Shown: piece after piece, positions 4,502 through 22,210 of the stretch | Layout: every line of letters begins with the position of its first letter | How positions within the stretch are numbered: position 1 is the stretch's first letter | Virus record (IMG/VR): IMGVR_UViG_3300042197_004886 | Location: 1 to 60,162 of that record | Reading direction: 5' to 3' (one strand) | DNA: 60,162 nt | From: a virus | Taxonomy: Duplodnaviria; Caudoviricetes | The notes under the pieces: model-generated | What the model saw: the letters and a program-made list of their open reading frames with translations, nothing else | What the model was told of the DNA's origin: nothing | The model's database searches: none | Made by a program: the position numbers and the translations under genes

Positions 4502-5671
4502 TTATGAAAAATTATAGTAATTGAAAAGTTTTGAAATAATTCCTTCTCCTCCTGGTGCTCCTGTTGCTCCCTGATCTCCTTGTGGTCCCTGGCCACCAGT
4601 TAATCCCTGCGGTCCCTGGTTTCCACTGGCTCCCTGATTGCCTTGATCTCCCTGTGGGCCGGCTATTCCCTGATCTCCCTGTGGCCCCTGTGCACCGGCT
4701 GCTCCCTGGTCTCCTTGTGCTCCCTGGTCTCCTTGTGCTCCCTGGTCTCCTTGTGCACCTTGTGGCCCCTGTGCACCGGCTGCTCCCTGATCTCCCTGGT
4801 CTCCCTTAAGTCCTTGTGCACCCTGGTCTCCTTGTGCTCCTTGAGATCCTTGTGATCCTTGAGCTCCAGTTGCACCTTGTGCACCCTGTGAGCCAGCTGC
4901 TCCTTGCGGACCCTGCGGCCCTTTTATCTGTAATGCCAAAACAAGGTCTTCGTCGTTTGAGAAACTATATCCGCCACTATCATAGGTTGCAGTTACTTCA
5001 ACATAATTATTTGAAATAACATTTATGCTGCTAACTATCCATTTTTGATAATTGTTCGAATCATCTTTGTCTTGAATGATAATAATATCATTTGCGCTTA
5101 GATTAGCTAGGTAGATATCAATATCTGATGCCTCCTGGGTCAAGTGATCAATATTGATTTGCGTTGCACTCGTCTGTGTTGCATTATTCCAAATAATATA
5201 GCCCGCTCCTGGATCTCCAGAATAAATTGTTGTCTTTGCTTTATAATTAAAAAAGCTGCTAGATTGACCTGGGGATCCTTGGTCCCCCTGTGAACCAGTT
5301 ACTCCCTGATCTCCTTGTGATCCAGCTGCTCCCTGTGGCCCCTGCGAACCGGCTGATCCTTGTGATCCTTGCAATCCCTGTGCACCAGTTGCTCCCTGTG
5401 GCCCTTGAGCTCCAGCTGTTCCTTGCGATCCTTGTGCACCTTGAGATCCAGCGGCGCCTTGCGCTCCTTGTGAACCCTGTGCTCCTTGTGGACCTTGCGG
5501 CCCTCCTCCACCGCCTCCTCCTTCGACCACTGTAATGTTACCTAAGTTATCAATCTTAGACAAGAGATCAGAATTATTTGTGTCAAATGCAATAAGATAT
5601 GCCCCATTGGGTATATTAGCATAGTCAACTGTCGAGAAATCTATTGTAGGATATAGGTATGAAATTGCCAC
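4502..5671 (-). CDS. Collagen-like (Gly-X-Y) fibre protein
   Basis: Two long GxQ triplet tracts (GPQGAQGSQ..., GDQGAQ...) flanking a globular domain; ATAAATA motifs upstream. Confidence 0.9.
4549..4921 (-). repeat. 9/18-nt coding tandem repeats of the C-terminal collagen tract
   Basis: Repeated CTCCCTGGTCTCCTTGTG-type units on the + strand encoding GDQ/GAQ triplets. Confidence 0.85.
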
Positions 5672-17270: not shown

Positions 17271-17601
17271 AGAATTTAAAGAACTGGCAGACCTAATGGT
17301 CAGATCTACCAAGAAAAAGGATCAGGCATATAAACTCGGCATCGACCTGTATGAAGCTTTTGAAGAAAACGAAAGGCTAATCGGTCAGCTTTGGGCAAAT
17401 CTCCTTACTGAACCTGGTCTCGACTGGTTTAACTGGTTCATGTACGAAAAAGATTACCTTCACGATGGTGTGGGTCGCCCTGATCTTACGGCCAGTGATG
17501 AGGGCACTCCTATTTGCGAAAATCTAAAGGGACTTTATGAGTATCTAATAACAAACAACTATTTTAAAATCGCACCAGGTAATGCAGAAACCGGAAATTA
17601 A
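17260..17601 (+). CDS. Hypothetical protein between the topoisomerase subunits
   Basis: ORF overlapping both neighbours. Confidence 0.7.
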   Translation: MTYKEFKELADLMVRSTKKKDQAYKLGIDLYEAFEENERLIGQLWANLLTEPGLDWFNWFMYEKDYLHDGVGRPDLTASDEGTPICENLKGLYEYLITNNYFKIAPGNAETGN

Positions 17602-18943
17602 ATCAGTCACCCAATACCTTGATCAGGACTATCGAGAATATGCAGTCTATGTGGTCGAGGAGCGCGCAATTCCATCGGTAATTGATGGTTTTAAACCCAC
17701 TCAGCGTAAGGTGATTTTTGTTGCCGACCGAGTATGGAGAAACGGCTCAGAAAAGCCGCTAAAGATATTTCAATTGGCCGGTAAGGTCGCTAGCGATGCT
17801 CACTACCACCATGGAGATGGCAGCTTGAGCGGAGCGATCGTCGGAATGGCTCAAAAGTTTAAGAATTCAATGCCTGTTCTTGAAGAGATCGGTCAGTTTG
17901 GTTCGCTAAGGTCGCCGGAAGCTGGAGCTCCTCGTTATATCTCTACTAAACTGCACAAAAACTTTAGACAGCTCTATATGGACTTTGAGCTGCTTACTCC
18001 TCGTTATGAAGAGGGCAGCGAGATCGAACCCAAATATTTTTTACCTATTATTCCAACAGTTCTGCTAAACGGCGGTAGCGGTATTGCAGTCGGCTTTGCG
18101 ACTAATATCCTAAACCGCAATCCGGTCGACCTAATCGATGCCTGTATAAAAGAGCTAGACGGTAAACCCTATAAGGAGCCCACTCCTTGGTATTATGGAT
18201 TTGGCGGCGAGTGCATAAAGGATCCGGAAAGCCCGCTTTCTTGGATCTTTAGGGGTCGTTTCGAGGTCAAAAATACCTCTACTGTAGAGGTGACTGAGCT
18301 GCCTCCTTCGCTTACCTATGAAAAATTCGATTCGCACCTTAGTACGCTAGAAGACACTCGTCGAATCGTGAGCCATGACAATAACTGTAAAGCCGATATC
18401 AATTATCTCTTAAAATTTAGGCGAGAGGACCTTAAGGCCCTGCAGGACTCAGGTCGCTTGGCCAAATCGCTAAAGATGGAGGAGAGGCAGTCTGAAAATT
18501 TTACAGTGTTGGACGAGAATGGAGACCTAAAGATCTTTGACAGCGCGACCTCAATCATCAAGTACTTTGTCAACTTTCGATTGGGCTATTACACAAAACG
18601 CAAGCTCTACCTTATTAACAAGCTAGAACAGGAACTTACCCTACTCTCGAACAAGGCTAATTTTATCAAGTACATCATTGAAGGCAAGATTAAGGTCAAT
18701 AATGTTCCTCGTGCAGAAATTATCCTGGCTCTAGAAACCGCAGACTTTGACCAGATCAACGGTTCCTATAACTATCTGCTCTCGCTTCCGATTCATACGC
18801 TTACGAAAGAAAATTACGAATCCTTGATAGCTGACGTTTTTGCAAAAGAGCAAGAGTTAAGTATTATTAAGCAGAAGGAGCCTATCCAGATGTACAAGGA
18901 TGATCTCCAGGATCTTCGTAAGGCCGTGATTAAATCATATTAG
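17582..18943 (+). CDS. Type IIA topoisomerase medium subunit (T4 gp52/GyrA-like)
   Basis: RAIPSVIDGFKPTQRK, YHHGDGS, APRY (catalytic Tyr), GIAVGFAT. Confidence 0.95.
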   Translation: MQKPEIKSVTQYLDQDYREYAVYVVEERAIPSVIDGFKPTQRKVIFVADRVWRNGSEKPLKIFQLAGKVASDAHYHHGDGSLSGAIVGMAQKFKNSMPVLEEIGQFGSLRSPEAGAPRYISTKLHKNFRQLYMDFELLTPRYEEGSEIEPKYFLPIIPTVLLNGGSGIAVGFATNILNRNPVDLIDACIKELDGKPYKEPTPWYYGFGGECIKDPESPLSWIFRGRFEVKNTSTVEVTELPPSLTYEKFDSHLSTLEDTRRIVSHDNNCKADINYLLKFRREDLKALQDSGRLAKSLKMEERQSENFTVLDENGDLKIFDSATSIIKYFVNFRLGYYTKRKLYLINKLEQELTLLSNKANFIKYIIEGKIKVNNVPRAEIILALETADFDQINGSYNYLLSLPIHTLTKENYESLIADVFAKEQELSIIKQKEPIQMYKDDLQDLRKAVIKSY

Positions 18944-18987
18944 TCCATAAATAAGAGTCCATCAGGGTTAATCTTAACTAGTTTGTG

Positions 18988-19014
18988 AAACTTTTTTCCT
19001 GAGAATTGTATAAT
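18988..19014 (+). promoter_or_regulatory. Putative early/middle promoter AAAC-N17-TATAAT
   Basis: Recurrent motif; perfect TATAAT. Confidence 0.6.
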
Positions 19015-19294: not shown

Positions 19295-19723
19295 ATGACT
19301 ATTGCACAGGCACTAAAAGAAAAAAACAAAAAGGTGGCTAAGATCAACAAGATCTGGACCAGGATCGCTAGTTATAACTCTGTTATCGAAGGCTCGGAAA
19401 AGCCGTACGACAGCGATAAACTGTGGGAAGAGTACAATCGGGAAATTGCCGACCTGATCGACCTCAAGACCCGTATCCACTTGGCCAGCGCGCCAGTACG
19501 TAAGGATATCTTTGCCCTGTCTGAACTAAAGAGCAAAATCCAAAACATGCGCTCTTTAAACACACAGGACGGTCTCTTGCGCGATCGCTATGCCAGCGAA
19601 TATACTGAAATGGTGGCGCATTTTTCTACTCTTTGGAAAGACGAGCAGATCGAGCTTACCGAAAGTATGATCGATTCCATCCAAGAAAAGCTGGATGCCT
19701 TCAACCACTCGACTAACATTTAA
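19295..19723 (+). CDS. DIP1984/DUF6847-like helical protein
   Basis: MTIAQALKE...NSVIEGSEKPYD..L...LIDLKTRI and C-terminal IDSIQEKLDAFNHSTNI match the recalled family pattern (MxLAEAL...VQEG..P.D...N..T.l). Confidence 0.6.
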   Translation: MTIAQALKEKNKKVAKINKIWTRIASYNSVIEGSEKPYDSDKLWEEYNREIADLIDLKTRIHLASAPVRKDIFALSELKSKIQNMRSLNTQDGLLRDRYASEYTEMVAHFSTLWKDEQIELTESMIDSIQEKLDAFNHSTNI

Positions 19724-20046
19724 TCCGGAGGTGGTGTTACACTATCCCTGGACGCGGGGAGAGATCGCAGATAATAAGCAATGACCGCCGCGTGGAATCA
19801 TTGACGAAGAGCGGTAGCGCAGGCGAAAATCCTGCCCGGATAACTTAAAAATGGGCACCGGCGGCTGAGAACGAGGAGACAAATGCTTCTATCTAGAACG
19901 AAAGTTCTATACTACTTGAACCTGATGGCGTGATGCGATATGACAATCTCAAAATTCAAGACACAAGAGATCAAAAGGCAAATCGTAAAAAGTCAAGACT
20001 CAATTTTGCAATTGTTAAATCAGGACCAGCCAAAGGCTGCCCACCA
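19723..20046 (+). ncRNA. Putative structured non-coding RNA (two domains, with a periodic YAA tract)
   Basis: No ORF in the track; helices ATCCGG/CCGGAT, GCAGG/CCTGC, CAATGA/TCATTG, TGGGCA/TGCCCA, CCTGAT/ATCAGG; GNRA hairpin TAGAAC-GAAA-GTTCTA; followed by a terminator. Confidence 0.65.
19944..20018 (+). repeat. 11 YAA triplets at 6-8 nt spacing
   Basis: YAA starts at 19944, 19950, 19957, 19964, 19972, 19979, 19986, 19994, 20001, 20009, 20016. Confidence 0.65.
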
Positions 20047-20047
20047 T

Positions 20048-20085
20048 AAAGAAAAAGAGGATCAAATGATCCTCTTTTTTCTTTT
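20048..20085. terminator. Bidirectional intrinsic terminator
   Basis: AAAAAGAGGATC-AAAT-GATCCTCTTTTT between convergent units. Confidence 0.85.
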
Positions 20086-20112
20086 ACTCTAGTCCAAAAC
20101 TCTTTGCCTAAA

Positions 20113-20478
20113 TTATTTTAGGGTAAGTAGATATTTAAGCTTGTTGATCTCGGCCAGCATTTCGTCCCGGACATTCAATAGGTCTGTGTCCTTGTGATCA
20201 TCTAATTTGTTATTAAAGGACAATAAGAACTGGGTCAAGGTGTCCAGGTATTCACCCATGTTTACCTCGCCGATATTCATTAGGTTGATAGTATCGTCTT
20301 CTTCTACTGCTACTCGACCGTACTTGCCCATGTAACTCTCCATAAAACTGTCGATTAGGCCATCAAATGCTTCGTAAATTCCATCGAATGCTTTGTGTTT
20401 TGCATAGGAGCCGGTCTGCCAGTGTAGGACTTTAAACTGGGCCTGGATTCCTAAAAATGTTGACATTGCTGTTGCCAT
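20113..20478 (-). CDS. Ferritin/Dps-like four-helix protein (DUF5856-like)
   Basis: LHWQT.SYA.HKA, D.F.E..MGKYGR, RDEML..INKLKYLLTL. Confidence 0.7.
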   Translation of the reverse strand: MATAMSTFLGIQAQFKVLHWQTGSYAKHKAFDGIYEAFDGLIDSFMESYMGKYGRVAVEEDDTINLMNIGEVNMGEYLDTLTQFLLSFNNKLDDHKDTDLLNVRDEMLAEINKLKYLLTLK

Positions 20479-20563: not shown

Positions 20564-22210
20564 TTACGCGCTAAAGTTAGCTGGCGCAACACTTCCAGTA
20601 AGAACACCAATGTTACCTTGGATGTCCATGCTTAAGTATTGAGTTTCAGGATGCCATCCAGCTTCAGTGATAGCATAACGAGACTTCATTCCGATCTTTG
20701 GAGAGAAGGTTCCCTCTGCGATGGTTTGTAAAGACTCAGCCATGATATACGGCATGAATTTAACACCTGGCTCTTCGTCAGCACCTTTACGTCCAAGAAC
20801 GATACGAGTATCACCCCAAGCTAAGTTAGGATCTACGTATACTTGAACTCCGTATACTTTACCAGCTGGGTAAAGGTTACCTGCTGTTCCAGCCATGTCA
20901 GTTGGAACTTGAGCGATAGAGTAACCAGCAACGTCAGCAAGAGCAGAAGCAATACGTCCGTTAGTCACGATGAAGGTAGCTGCACCGAAACGACCTCTGT
21001 GATAGATCAAGTTAGCAAGTTCAAGGATCTTGGTAACCAATCTACGCTGTAAGGTAGAAACGTTTTCAAATCCACCAGAACCAGCAGAAAGATCTAAGGT
21101 AGTGATACCTGCACCTTCAACTAGGGCAACTTCAGCTGAGTGAACATCACCTAAGGTGAATACACGGTCAACCAAACGCTTGTTGATAGACTGGGCAATG
21201 TCATTAACTGCTACGTTTTCCAACATAGAGATAACGTCATAGTTCCATACACGGTTCAAGTCTTGGATTTGCTCTACAGTTGCAGAGATAGAAACTTGGT
21301 CGCCTTCTGCTTCTACGAACTTAGTGAACATTTTAAGACCCATTTGACGGAACTTAGAAAGTTCAGCTTTTTCTCTCTTCATTGATCCGGGTATTCCGCC
21401 AGTTGACGGTAAGTAAGGACCATTGAAATCAGTTGTAGAATAATCATCATCAGATACTGAAGTGAAACCAGAGATGTGGTTTTCAAGAGCAGAAACTAAT
21501 TGTACTGATCCTGTGGCAGTCGCACCAGAAGTATCACCAGCGATGGTTACAGTGTTTCCTTCGATTGACGTCGCAAGAACATTACTACCATTGTCGGCCG
21601 TTACCTTAAGGATTACGTGGCCATCGATACGAGAGAATCCTACGAAATCTAAACTAAAGTCACCAGCGCCAGAACCACTGATTGTTGCTGCGTCACCGTA
21701 TGCTGCACTAGGAAAATCGGTTGCAGTCAATCCTACGATCTTAATCAAGTATGGATCGAAATCCTTATCTGTACGACCGCCTGTGTACAAGTAGTCTAAG
21801 TAAGGTAAGAAACCTACTGGAGAATCCATCGGGATAACTGGTACCAAGTCAAATCCAATTGTCTTAGCTGCAACTTGAATAGCTACAGGAAGCAATGAAG
21901 GAAATTTGTCGCCAGATCCAGAATCTGAGTAAGAATTTTTAACACCACCCGCAGTAAAAGGTGTTTGTGTTGCAGTCGGAGCAACAGGAGCTCCCATGTA
22001 ACCGCCTAAAGAAGCAGGTTGTTGGAAGAATAAACCAGGAGCAGTTTGTTCGAAGATAGGGGCAGTATTATCGAAAATCGCGTGGTTGTGAGCGTACTCA
22101 GCTAACCAAGGAGTTTTCTCCATATTTGCACCGTAACCTTCTAAAACTGGCTTCCAGGTGTTTGCCAAGCGAGCATCGCTTGAACGTCTGAAAATTTTTG
22201 TACGTGCCAT
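20564..22210 (-). CDS. Major capsid protein (T4 gp23-like)
   Basis: W.PVLEG, IGFDLVPVIPMDSPVG, EQIQDL, RGRFGAATFIV, VYVDP, FMPYI, FSPKIGMKSRY. Confidence 0.92.
   Translation of the reverse strand: MARTKIFRRSSDARLANTWKPVLEGYGANMEKTPWLAEYAHNHAIFDNTAPIFEQTAPGLFFQQPASLGGYMGAPVAPTATQTPFTAGGVKNSYSDSGSGDKFPSLLPVAIQVAAKTIGFDLVPVIPMDSPVGFLPYLDYLYTGGRTDKDFDPYLIKIVGLTATDFPSAAYGDAATISGSGAGDFSLDFVGFSRIDGHVILKVTADNGSNVLATSIEGNTVTIAGDTSGATATGSVQLVSALENHISGFTSVSDDDYSTTDFNGPYLPSTGGIPGSMKREKAELSKFRQMGLKMFTKFVEAEGDQVSISATVEQIQDLNRVWNYDVISMLENVAVNDIAQSINKRLVDRVFTLGDVHSAEVALVEGAGITTLDLSAGSGGFENVSTLQRRLVTKILELANLIYHRGRFGAATFIVTNGRIASALADVAGYSIAQVPTDMAGTAGNLYPAGKVYGVQVYVDPNLAWGDTRIVLGRKGADEEPGVKFMPYIMAESLQTIAEGTFSPKIGMKSRYAITEAGWHPETQYLSMDIQGNIGVLTGSVAPANFSA

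Follow-up and report, generated by a model that had tools for sequence, protein, structure and literature searches.

The locus considered here raises the question of whether a small viral gene and the helix-rich DNA immediately behind it form one system of protein and RNA and, if so, of what kind. It lies at positions 19,295 to 20,085 of IMG/VR virus record IMGVR_UViG_3300042197_004886, of which positions 1 to 60,162 were analysed and are referred to below as the window. This 60-kb window is a fragment of an uncultured virus record that, by the record's own estimate, is about 24% complete. A preliminary description had pointed to a DIP1984/DUF6847-like gene followed by a structured RNA bearing 11 phased YAA triplets, and had proposed an undescribed pairing of the two. 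We find that the gene pair is real and widespread and that it has an unusual register of 7 nucleotides (nt). Across deep divergence, the gene stays genetically coupled to a structured, non-coding RNA in which the 7-nt phasing is kept. Relatives of the locus add features that the preliminary description did not contain, namely a variable number of units, GAU repeats, a 5' domain confined to one sub-lineage, and RtcB, WYL and tRNA genes as neighbours of the bacterial-type members.

The coupling is seen first in the close relatives. In all 11 of those collected initially (49-58% protein identity), the core element directly follows the stop codon, and the 3' domain spans from TGGGC to GCCCACCA, after which comes a terminator. 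A wider search returned more T4-like contigs together with distant viral homologues at 26-34% identity. Among species-representative genomes, homologues occur in Flavobacteriales/Crocinitomicaceae bins (44-49%), in Bacteroidales (33-36%), in a Fimbriimonadaceae bin, and in GC-rich Verrucomicrobia-type contigs (24-29%). Searching GenBank phages with tblastn gave homologues in two uncultured huge phages only, and in no cultured model phage. At 24-36% identity, a closing helix and phased units could still be recognized by eye on the 3' side of the gene in viral contigs (loci L038-L040 and L042) and Bacteroidales (L056 and L057); the same was seen, again by eye, in the Fimbriimonadaceae bin (L060), the GC-rich contigs (L061-L069) and both huge phages (L102 and L103). 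The layout is recurrent. A long, interrupted helix joins the two ends of the element. It encloses between one and three small hairpins, then a handful of GAU units and a YAA run with a period of about 7 nt, and this run closes with a YAARNYUC unit just before the 3' arm. The expectation that DNA downstream of homologues would carry a structured element with 7-nt-phased YAA triplets is thus borne out down to 24-30% identity.

The linkage also holds when approached from the RNA. A degenerate 25-nt pattern drawn from its conserved units has 23 matches in 2.9 million viral contigs. Of these, 19 lie 91-106 nt beyond the end of the protein gene and on its strand, and four fall by chance within coding sequence, for instance in tail-fibre genes. 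With R1, a covariance model of the RNA, each of four phage records yields a single copy, in every case on the 3' side of the gene.

The register itself is the second line of evidence. YAA triplets in the window start at 19944, 19950, 19957, 19964, 19972, 19979, 19986, 19994, 20001, 20009 and 20016, with spacings of 6, 7, 7, 8, 7, 7, 8, 7, 8 and 7 nt, just as first described, and neither strand of the window has another chain as long as these 11 units. It lies beyond all shuffles: the longest chain in 200 dinucleotide-preserving shuffles of the window was eight, most giving four to six, and 5000 shuffles of the tract alone all stayed below eight. Across 34 other loci, the window being excluded, YAA pairs pile up at lags of 7, 14-15, 21-22 and 28. 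At lag 7 the z-score is 13.6 for YAA and 25.4 for CAA alone, and four clades taken separately give 6.3, 9.0, 9.0 and 10.8 with flat upstream control stretches, values that overstate independence in that the sequences are mutually related. GAT pairs are enriched at lags 6-7 in the 34 other loci (z 25.8 and 13.1), reflecting the GAU repeats that precede the YAA units.

A logo of the unit reads U-CAA-R-A-Y-U in AT-rich members and CAA-R-C-Y-N in GC-rich members, with bias at all seven positions. In GC-rich units such as CAAGCCG and CAAACCU, the CAA phasing is kept and the other positions track base composition. Bias at every position looks like a series of repeated identical sites rather than a fixed anchor with a variable guide. 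This bears on a comparison with VIPR, in which, according to the accessible portions of the reports, the phage protein Vipr polymerises along a vrRNA with a 5-nt phase (bioRxiv 10.64898/2026.04.26.720920 and 10.64898/2026.04.26.720927; also 10.64898/2026.10.15.759431), the vrRNA consisting of fixed GGY alternating with variable NN at period 5 (10.64898/2026.04.26.720920, 10.64898/2026.04.26.720927). Both systems place a small phage protein beside an RNA of short, evenly phased units. As far as those portions describe it, Vipr is a RAMP (Cas7-like) with variable NN between its fixed bases, whereas the protein here has the helical DIP1984 fold and its RNA, located 3' of the gene and held closed by a long terminal helix, has a period of 7, a fixed CAA(R) and no clearly variable position. 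A Pfam scan found no RAMP family, and the only structure matched was PDB 3kdq. The VIPR precedent of phage proteins polymerising on phased-repeat RNAs, as set out in those portions (10.64898/2026.04.26.720920, 10.64898/2026.04.26.720927), would allow a non-contiguous guide, in which the CAA anchors would be protein-bound and the bases between them would read a target. Such a guide is nonetheless highly improbable for a protein that is not a RAMP, given that all seven positions are biased, that CAA-R-C-Y-N leaves about one free position, and that the first four units are kept across proteins only 50-65% identical.

That the element acts as a folded RNA is indicated by several measures. The helices, GAAA hairpin and terminator named in the preliminary description all lie where it had placed them (Table 1). 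TGGGCA (19852-19857) pairs with TGCCCA (20038-20043), GGCTG (19863-19867) with CAGCC (20027-20031), and CCTGAT (19921-19926) with ATCAGG (20019-20024). At the place equivalent to the GAAA hairpin, relatives have, by eye, a hairpin with other stem letters (GAC/GTC, AGC/GCT or ACGC/GCGT) and GCAA-type loops, and in the GC-rich clade a hairpin has the GAU units as its 5' strand. None of 100 shuffles of the + strand of 19724-20090 folds as well as the actual sequence (z -4.3), and the - strand gives z -2.3. RNAalifold on a plain MAFFT alignment of 17 sequences recovered only the outer stem and the terminator, and R1 was therefore built, from nine sequences with the window excluded. R1 matches the window once, at 19851-20047 (40.6 bits, E 2.5e-7), and also matches all close-clade elements. 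In a 27-sequence alignment (A6), 86.1% of cells pair, as against 43-56% when partners are slid by one to three columns, and 25 of the 26 pairs show changes on both sides, counts that are inflated in that A6 was fitted to the structure of the model. The covariation score of A6 is 0.431 against 0.179 in shuffles, none of 500 of which reached it; the rod arms do co-vary, as the preliminary description had asked to be checked.

An alignment-free comparison points the same way. For 30 loci, the first 55 nt after the stop codon were set against the 55 nt after the last YAARNYUC unit, and 16 rows and 17 columns of the resulting 30 x 30 table have their best duplex in the cognate arms. Against shuffles these arms reach z -1.9 or lower in 28 of 30 loci, both failures (L025 and L054) being due to a misplaced landmark. 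An alignment of the GC-rich clade has a clear fold and almost no covariation because its sequences are too similar. These results bear directly on whether the array is a DNA-level repeat or a chance feature, for example a protein-binding array on double-stranded DNA. Heptamer tandem repeats do occur in phage DNA, as illustrated by (TAAGRAT) x 11 in L050. Compensatory changes in the long-range helices, the fixed strand and position relative to the gene, and the shuffle controls nevertheless make this explanation barely credible. The L050 repeat is perfect and tandem, occupies 4821-4910 directly after a tRNA-Val gene (4737-4812), and lies about 1.9 kb 3' of a DUF6847-like gene. Its sequence fits a YAAR-type heptad, and it may be a second docking array or a simple repeat.

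The region had also been described as lacking any open reading frame (ORF). Mechanical ORFs of 39 and 50 amino acids (aa) on the + strand and of 46 aa on the - strand do exist. Among 17 distinct close relatives, however, the longest ORFs disagree in frame, length (4-50 aa) and sequence, and because of this lack of conservation we regard the region as non-coding, in keeping with the substance of the original statement. No Rfam (release 15) family reaches its gathering score: the window has no matches, and 18 diverse loci have tRNAs only. Searching 19650-20150 against Rfam at E <= 10 gave only terminator-driven matches far under the gathering scores.

One could still suppose that the element is a cis-acting 3' untranslated region that stabilises the DUF6847-like mRNA or controls its own expression, with no independent role for the RNA. 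In the close clade 2-8 nt separate the stop codon from its start; it has a terminator at its end and shows no evident promoter of its own apart from one weak consensus match at 19801-19830. A stabiliser, on the other hand, needs no 7-nt-phased CAA kept across four clades that range from 23 to 67% GC. Moreover, another ORF separates the gene from the array in L037 and L103, and several loci continue into + strand genes or tRNAs without a terminator between. We consider this explanation unlikely.

The protein partner has 142 aa. It matches Pfam DUF6847 (PF20935) with E 8e-5 and 23.1 bits, under the curated cut-off of 27, over profile positions 6-140 of 141, and NCBIfam DIP1984_fam (NF038048) with E 3e-7 and 30.8 bits, under the cut-off of 70, over positions 2-148 of 149. 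Searched with a profile built from 15 members of the family, PDB yields 3kdq (E 0.007), the only solved relative and a protein of Corynebacterium diphtheriae deposited, with four chains, as a 'functionally unknown conserved protein'. The AlphaFold (AF2) model of the 142-aa protein has a pLDDT of 90 and consists of four helices and a beta hairpin, and its best Foldseek matches are 3kdq_A/C (TM 0.72-0.76, E 6e-4). The initial assignment to DUF6847/DIP1984 therefore stands as regards the full-length match and the 3kdq fold, and not as regards the curated score cut-offs. The protein is a divergent member of a mainly viral subfamily of the DIP1984 fold, which shares that fold over its full length and is distinguished by its own N-terminal IAQALKEKN(K/R) and C-terminal QEKLDxFN motifs.

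The family is large. The 127 close homologues include 120 listed for precomputed matches, of which 54 match PF20935. A profile search returned 1931 representatives of 50%-identity clusters at E <= 1e-3 and 1458 at E <= 1e-10, and the Atlas clusters of the family are mostly viral. PF20935 has a match in 3 of 401 Bacteroidota genomes, and the family is rare in that cellular sample. The sole DUF6847 match above cut-off among 14 named control genomes is in Deinococcus radiodurans, which is the classic bacterial model for Ro60 and Y RNA. PADLOC gave weak coiled-coil matches to LmuB alone (E 0.003-0.005), and these were dismissed.

Invariant polar residues of the protein are K10, N11, N28, K58, K79, Q130, D134 and N137. 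Within the first 30 residues the net charge is +5 to +7 in every one of the 15 aligned members, and such a conserved basic N-terminal helix fits nucleic-acid binding. Modelled against itself, the protein pairs through a symmetric dimer interface that scores ipSAE 0.67, the best of three controls scoring 0.00. In calibration, the mark for a pass was reached by 20 of 30 proteins solved as same-chain pairs and by 1 of 23 solved as single chains, and the pass may reflect memory of the related four-chain crystal entry 3kdq. The runs agree in at least 97% of contacts, with a partner pLDDT of at least 86. Oligomerisation, with one triplet bound per subunit, had been part of the preliminary proposal; the modelling predicts self-association as a dimer and offers no evidence for an 11-mer ring.

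Taking these observations together, we favour, tentatively and with slightly less than even confidence, a protein-RNA partnership in which copies of the protein would dock on the heptads and form a ribonucleoprotein. The RNA would be made as the 3' part of an operon transcript that presumably runs from the promoter-like site to the terminator of Table 1. Some 200 nt long, with predicted ends at G19853 and behind the ACCA at 20046, it would fold from its two ends into a rod that displays an open region with GAU and 4-11 CAA(R) units. Copies of the protein, probably at least dimers, would then dock side by side on the units spaced at 7 nt.

As to what such a particle might do, the neighbourhood of the bacterial-type members is suggestive. 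In Bacteroidales L056 and L057, a divergent RtcB gene is followed by an HTH-WYL-WCX regulator directly upstream of the DUF6847-like gene, and then the RNA. In GC-rich loci, the pair has tRNA genes for neighbours, one of them immediately 3' of the RNA. ARAGORN identifies a tRNA-Phe(GAA) directly after the element in L063, L065, L067, L068 and L069, and Rfam a tRNA in L062; RtcB comes next after the tRNA in L062, L063, L067, L068 and L069. In all, RtcB lies within 2.5 kb in 7 of the 12 loci examined from L056-L069 (L058 being partial and L059 not counted), in two unrelated clades, which is far above chance for a gene present in one to two copies per multi-megabase genome. On the grounds of these RtcB, WYL and tRNA neighbours, the role of the particle would be placed in RNA damage and repair or in tRNA-centred conflict, rather than in gene-specific regulation; the gene pair may act in RNA repair or virus-host conflict. 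A more specific version is doubtful, though it deserves stating. It holds that the pair is a RAMP-unrelated ribonucleoprotein of phages and mobile elements, with a helical protein in strict 7-nt register and a Y-RNA-like scaffold or bait tied to RtcB and tRNA pools in RNA-damage conflicts.

A phage-type integrase stands upstream of the block of tRNA, DUF6847-like gene, RNA, tRNA-Phe and RtcB (L062:1447-2334, L063:769-1599 and L068:321-725), which suggests that the GC-rich block may ride on an integrative element or prophage. Within its tRNA region, the T5 phage record (L104, AY543070.1; 28000-41600) annotates eight 'stable RNAs with unknown functions'. Among these, RNAX (719 nt) lies between T5.081 (a 145-aa hypothetical) and tRNA-Arg, an order like that of the GC-rich loci but without a heptad array; none was seen anywhere in the first 50 kb of that record.

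The same neighbourhood can be read differently. The RNA might be a decoy, a sponge or a substrate of some other factor, such as a host RNA-binding protein, a ribonuclease or ribotoxin, or enzymes of tRNA processing or repair, with the protein only assisting or co-expressed. Repeated near-identical single-stranded units would suit such a use, as would the tRNA genes and RtcB beside bacterial-type members and a protein that is not basic overall. In 13 of 17 distinct close-clade sequences the rod is immediately followed by N-CCA, and in GC-rich loci the element is followed by a tRNA; from these two features it may be suggested that tRNA-processing enzymes release the RNA from the transcript. The strict one-to-one linkage of the RNA with one protein family, across hosts and GC contents, is hard to reconcile with a host factor as the reader, and no candidate factor was identified. 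We rate this alternative as rather improbable, though as one to be taken seriously.

A number of observations weigh against the docking of the protein on the heptads, or narrow its reach. The number of phased units is very variable, about 3 to 10 in relatives, many having four to six and the GC-rich members about six; the 11 of the window are the extreme case. Of 54 distinct loci, only 27 show their strongest 7-nt periodicity in the stretch just 3' of the gene, although in 39 that stretch ranks within the top 1% of a locus of about 5 kb. A tolerant chain measure is strictly longest behind the gene in only 18 of 54, with nine ties. Some of the periodicity misses (L037, L038 and L040) are the reverse strand of the same array, and per-locus chain length discriminates poorly in AT-rich DNA, for which reason it was replaced by the lag statistics and a periodicity index. 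In L037 the array comes after the next gene, in L103 it comes after a 28-aa mini-ORF, and L041 is ambiguous. The canonical bacterial DUF6847 genes examined, L093 and L094, have no such RNA, and the pairing is therefore a trait of the subfamily and, as far as the evidence goes, not of the superfamily at large. With a pI of 5.2-6.8 in 13 of the 15 members aligned, the protein as a whole is neutral or slightly acidic, which is unusual for an RNA-coating protein, and the self-association model gives a dimer rather than a long oligomer. Finally, RtcB was found in none of five phage records and not in the window, so that the link to repair is drawn from bacterial-type loci.

Two of these loci have further features. 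L103 is in a 595-kb uncultured phage (LR756511.1), and its 28-aa mini-ORF, MAKGKTPKKEPKK, is lysine-rich and lies about 30-115 nt after the stop codon of the gene, before the heptad element. The canonical gene of L093 (1187-2050; 163 bits) belongs to a 65% GC genome of the phylum Bacteroidota and is preceded by tRNA-Gly and tRNA-Val; after it lies a T-arm-like fragment, GGGTTCGATCCCCAC, which ARAGORN does not call, and no heptads are visible.

Among known systems, Ro60 with its Y RNA is loosely comparable and would be the closest analogue in layout. Ro60 (Rsr) and Y RNA are found in the rsr-yrlA-rtcBA RNA-repair operon, and the ends of Y RNA form a long stem. Both systems thus have a non-coding RNA whose ends form a long stem around an open region, encoded beside its protein partner (a presumed one in the present case), and the bacterial-type loci share with it RtcB and tRNA or tRNA-like neighbours; both also occur in phages. 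Unlike Ro60 loci, those described here have no TROVE protein (the neighbours are RtcB, WYL-WCX, integrase and AAA) and no Rfam match to Y RNA or tRNA-like models, the phage records searched lack RtcB, and Y RNAs are not known to have heptads.

The preliminary description had drawn analogies with TRAP and with type III toxin-antitoxin systems, and neither survives as a statement of membership. TRAP (MtrB) is an 11-subunit ring that reads 11 (G/U)AG triplets separated by 2-3 nt spacers in the Bacillus trp 5' leader. Many evenly spaced single-stranded triplets are common to both, and the window also has 11. TRAP, however, is a beta-sheet ring whereas the protein here is helical and modelled as a dimer; the triplet is YAA, with 3-5 nt spacers and a spacing of 7 nt rather than 5; the RNA lies 3' of the gene and not in a leader; and the unit count varies from about 3 to 11. 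Binding by Rho at rut sites was also considered and dropped. GC-rich members do have a tract rich in C and poor in G, but a 7-nt spacing does not fit Rho, whose sites are spaced at about 11-13 nt.

Type III toxin-antitoxin systems (ToxIN, CptIN and TenpIN) combine an endoribonuclease toxin with an upstream RNA of repeats of about 34-45 nt (36 nt in ToxIN). A toxic protein neutralised by a repeat RNA would account for the occurrence, in phages and mobile elements, of a repeat-bearing RNA next to a protein gene, and bacterial plasmid relatives are labelled 'septicolysin', which is an annotation label only. The pair described here has no match to a type III toxin family in Pfam and no meaningful one in PADLOC, its RNA is downstream and not upstream, its units are of 7 nt and not about 36 nt, and its helical fold is without a known nuclease site. 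An arrangement of this type is accordingly very unlikely.

The pairing had been put forward as undescribed, and the searches made agree with that. Full-text searches for DUF6847 and DIP1984 gave one unrelated plasmid-epidemiology paper and no functional account, and at least among the matches listed, those for 'septicolysin' concerned gene annotation or toxins unrelated to RNA. The accessible portion of a preprint on intergenic periodicity reports periods of 5, 18 and 60-79 nt (bioRxiv 10.64898/2026.10.21.760802). Its one period-7 cluster is, in that portion, a palindromic array without a protein partner (10.64898/2026.10.21.760802), and on that account a different element. The Rtc operon is covered in the accessible portion of PMC7790460. 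No description of the gene-RNA pair was found, although the supplementary lists of the preprint, with 20,149 RNA clusters that have a candidate protein partner, could contain it unnamed.

For a large protein family without known function, the conserved partner RNA is the first concrete handle. CAA every 7 nt is a simple, mutable feature, through which binding, stoichiometry and structure become directly testable. The RNA has no match in Rfam and yet spans very different phages and bacterial mobile elements, and its placement beside RtcB, WYL and tRNA genes points to a poorly understood area of RNA repair or tRNA-targeted virus-host conflict. Should the docking on heptads prove true, it would be a second example, after VIPR, of proteins reading phased short RNA repeats, with an unrelated fold and logic, and a ribonucleoprotein would give the large orphan DIP1984/DUF6847 superfamily a function.

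Table 1. Features of the gene-RNA unit and its flanks, with positions in the window
Feature	Positions	Strand	Basis or remarks
Promoter-like site, GTGAAA-18-TATAAT	18985..19014	+	Consensus scan, 10 of 12 matches; weak; precedes the unit of ORF83, DUF6847-like gene and RNA
ORF83, 83 aa	19035..19286	+	Upstream neighbour kept in the T4-like clade only
DIP1984/DUF6847-like gene, 142 aa	19295..19723	+	Hidden Markov models, AF2 model, Foldseek; four helices and a beta hairpin
Accessory 5' RNA domain	19723..19841	+	Multi-helix junction closed by ATCCGG/CCGGAT; window's sub-lineage only
Core structured RNA	19851..20047	+	Behind the gene in all clades; covariance model R1, alignments
5' arm of closing rod, TGGGCA ... 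GGCTG	19852..19867	+	Minimum-free-energy pairing with 20027-20043; co-varying pairs
Hairpin TAGAAC-GAAA-GTTCTA	19894..19909	+	Sequence and fold
CCTGAT strand of inner helix and three overlapping GAU units (19924, 19932, 19937)	19921..19939	+	Sequence
11 YAA units, consensus U-CAA-R-A-Y-U	19944..20018	+	Spacing 6-8 nt
ATCAGG, 3' rod arm (CAGCC ... TGCCCA), then ACCA	20019..20046	+	Sequence, fold
Bidirectional intrinsic terminator, shared with the convergent DUF5856 gene	20051..20080	.	Hairpin aligned in 17 of 17 close-clade sequences

The accessory 5' domain is a four-arm junction between the stop codon and the core RNA. It is about 90% identical in L096, the closest relative (80% protein identity), where one of its hairpins has changed in a compensatory manner from CAATGA/TCATTG to CAGCA/TGCTG. 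It was not seen in the other 11 aligned relatives and has no Rfam match, and a 22-nt pattern taken from it has no matches in the viral contigs. Its last arm, a 5-bp stem with a 7-nt loop, stands beside the closing stem in a loosely tRNA-like layout. The ACCA end and this junction-shaped domain are tRNA resemblances only: ARAGORN calls no tRNA or tmRNA gene in the window. A tmRNA-like identity was considered and dropped for want of a T arm, a G3:U70 pair and a conserved ORF.

The window carries T4-like genes, including a topoisomerase II subunit (17582-18943) and a Gp23-type major capsid protein (20564-22210, - strand). Public runs containing the stretch are freshwater metagenomes, none of those listed being RNA; two contain all of it and may be the source sample. 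A search by blastn of the region against GenBank phages gave no match. Gene order is constant in the T4-like clade: topoisomerase, ORF83, DUF6847-like gene and RNA, then DUF5856 and capsid genes in convergent orientation. At about 50-65% identity, the DUF6847-like protein diverges faster than the capsid or topoisomerase (72-87%). ORF83 has no family match in Pfam, NCBIfam, PHROG or PADLOC; it has tblastn matches in 52 loci at 41-77% identity, and none in the distant clades L037-L069. The convergent neighbour (20113-20478, - strand) is a DUF5856 protein, assigned to PHROG 858 ('starvation-inducible transcriptional regulator') and bearing a Dps-like label. Its gene adjoins the capsid gene throughout the T4-like clade, and the bidirectional terminator is common to it and the RNA.

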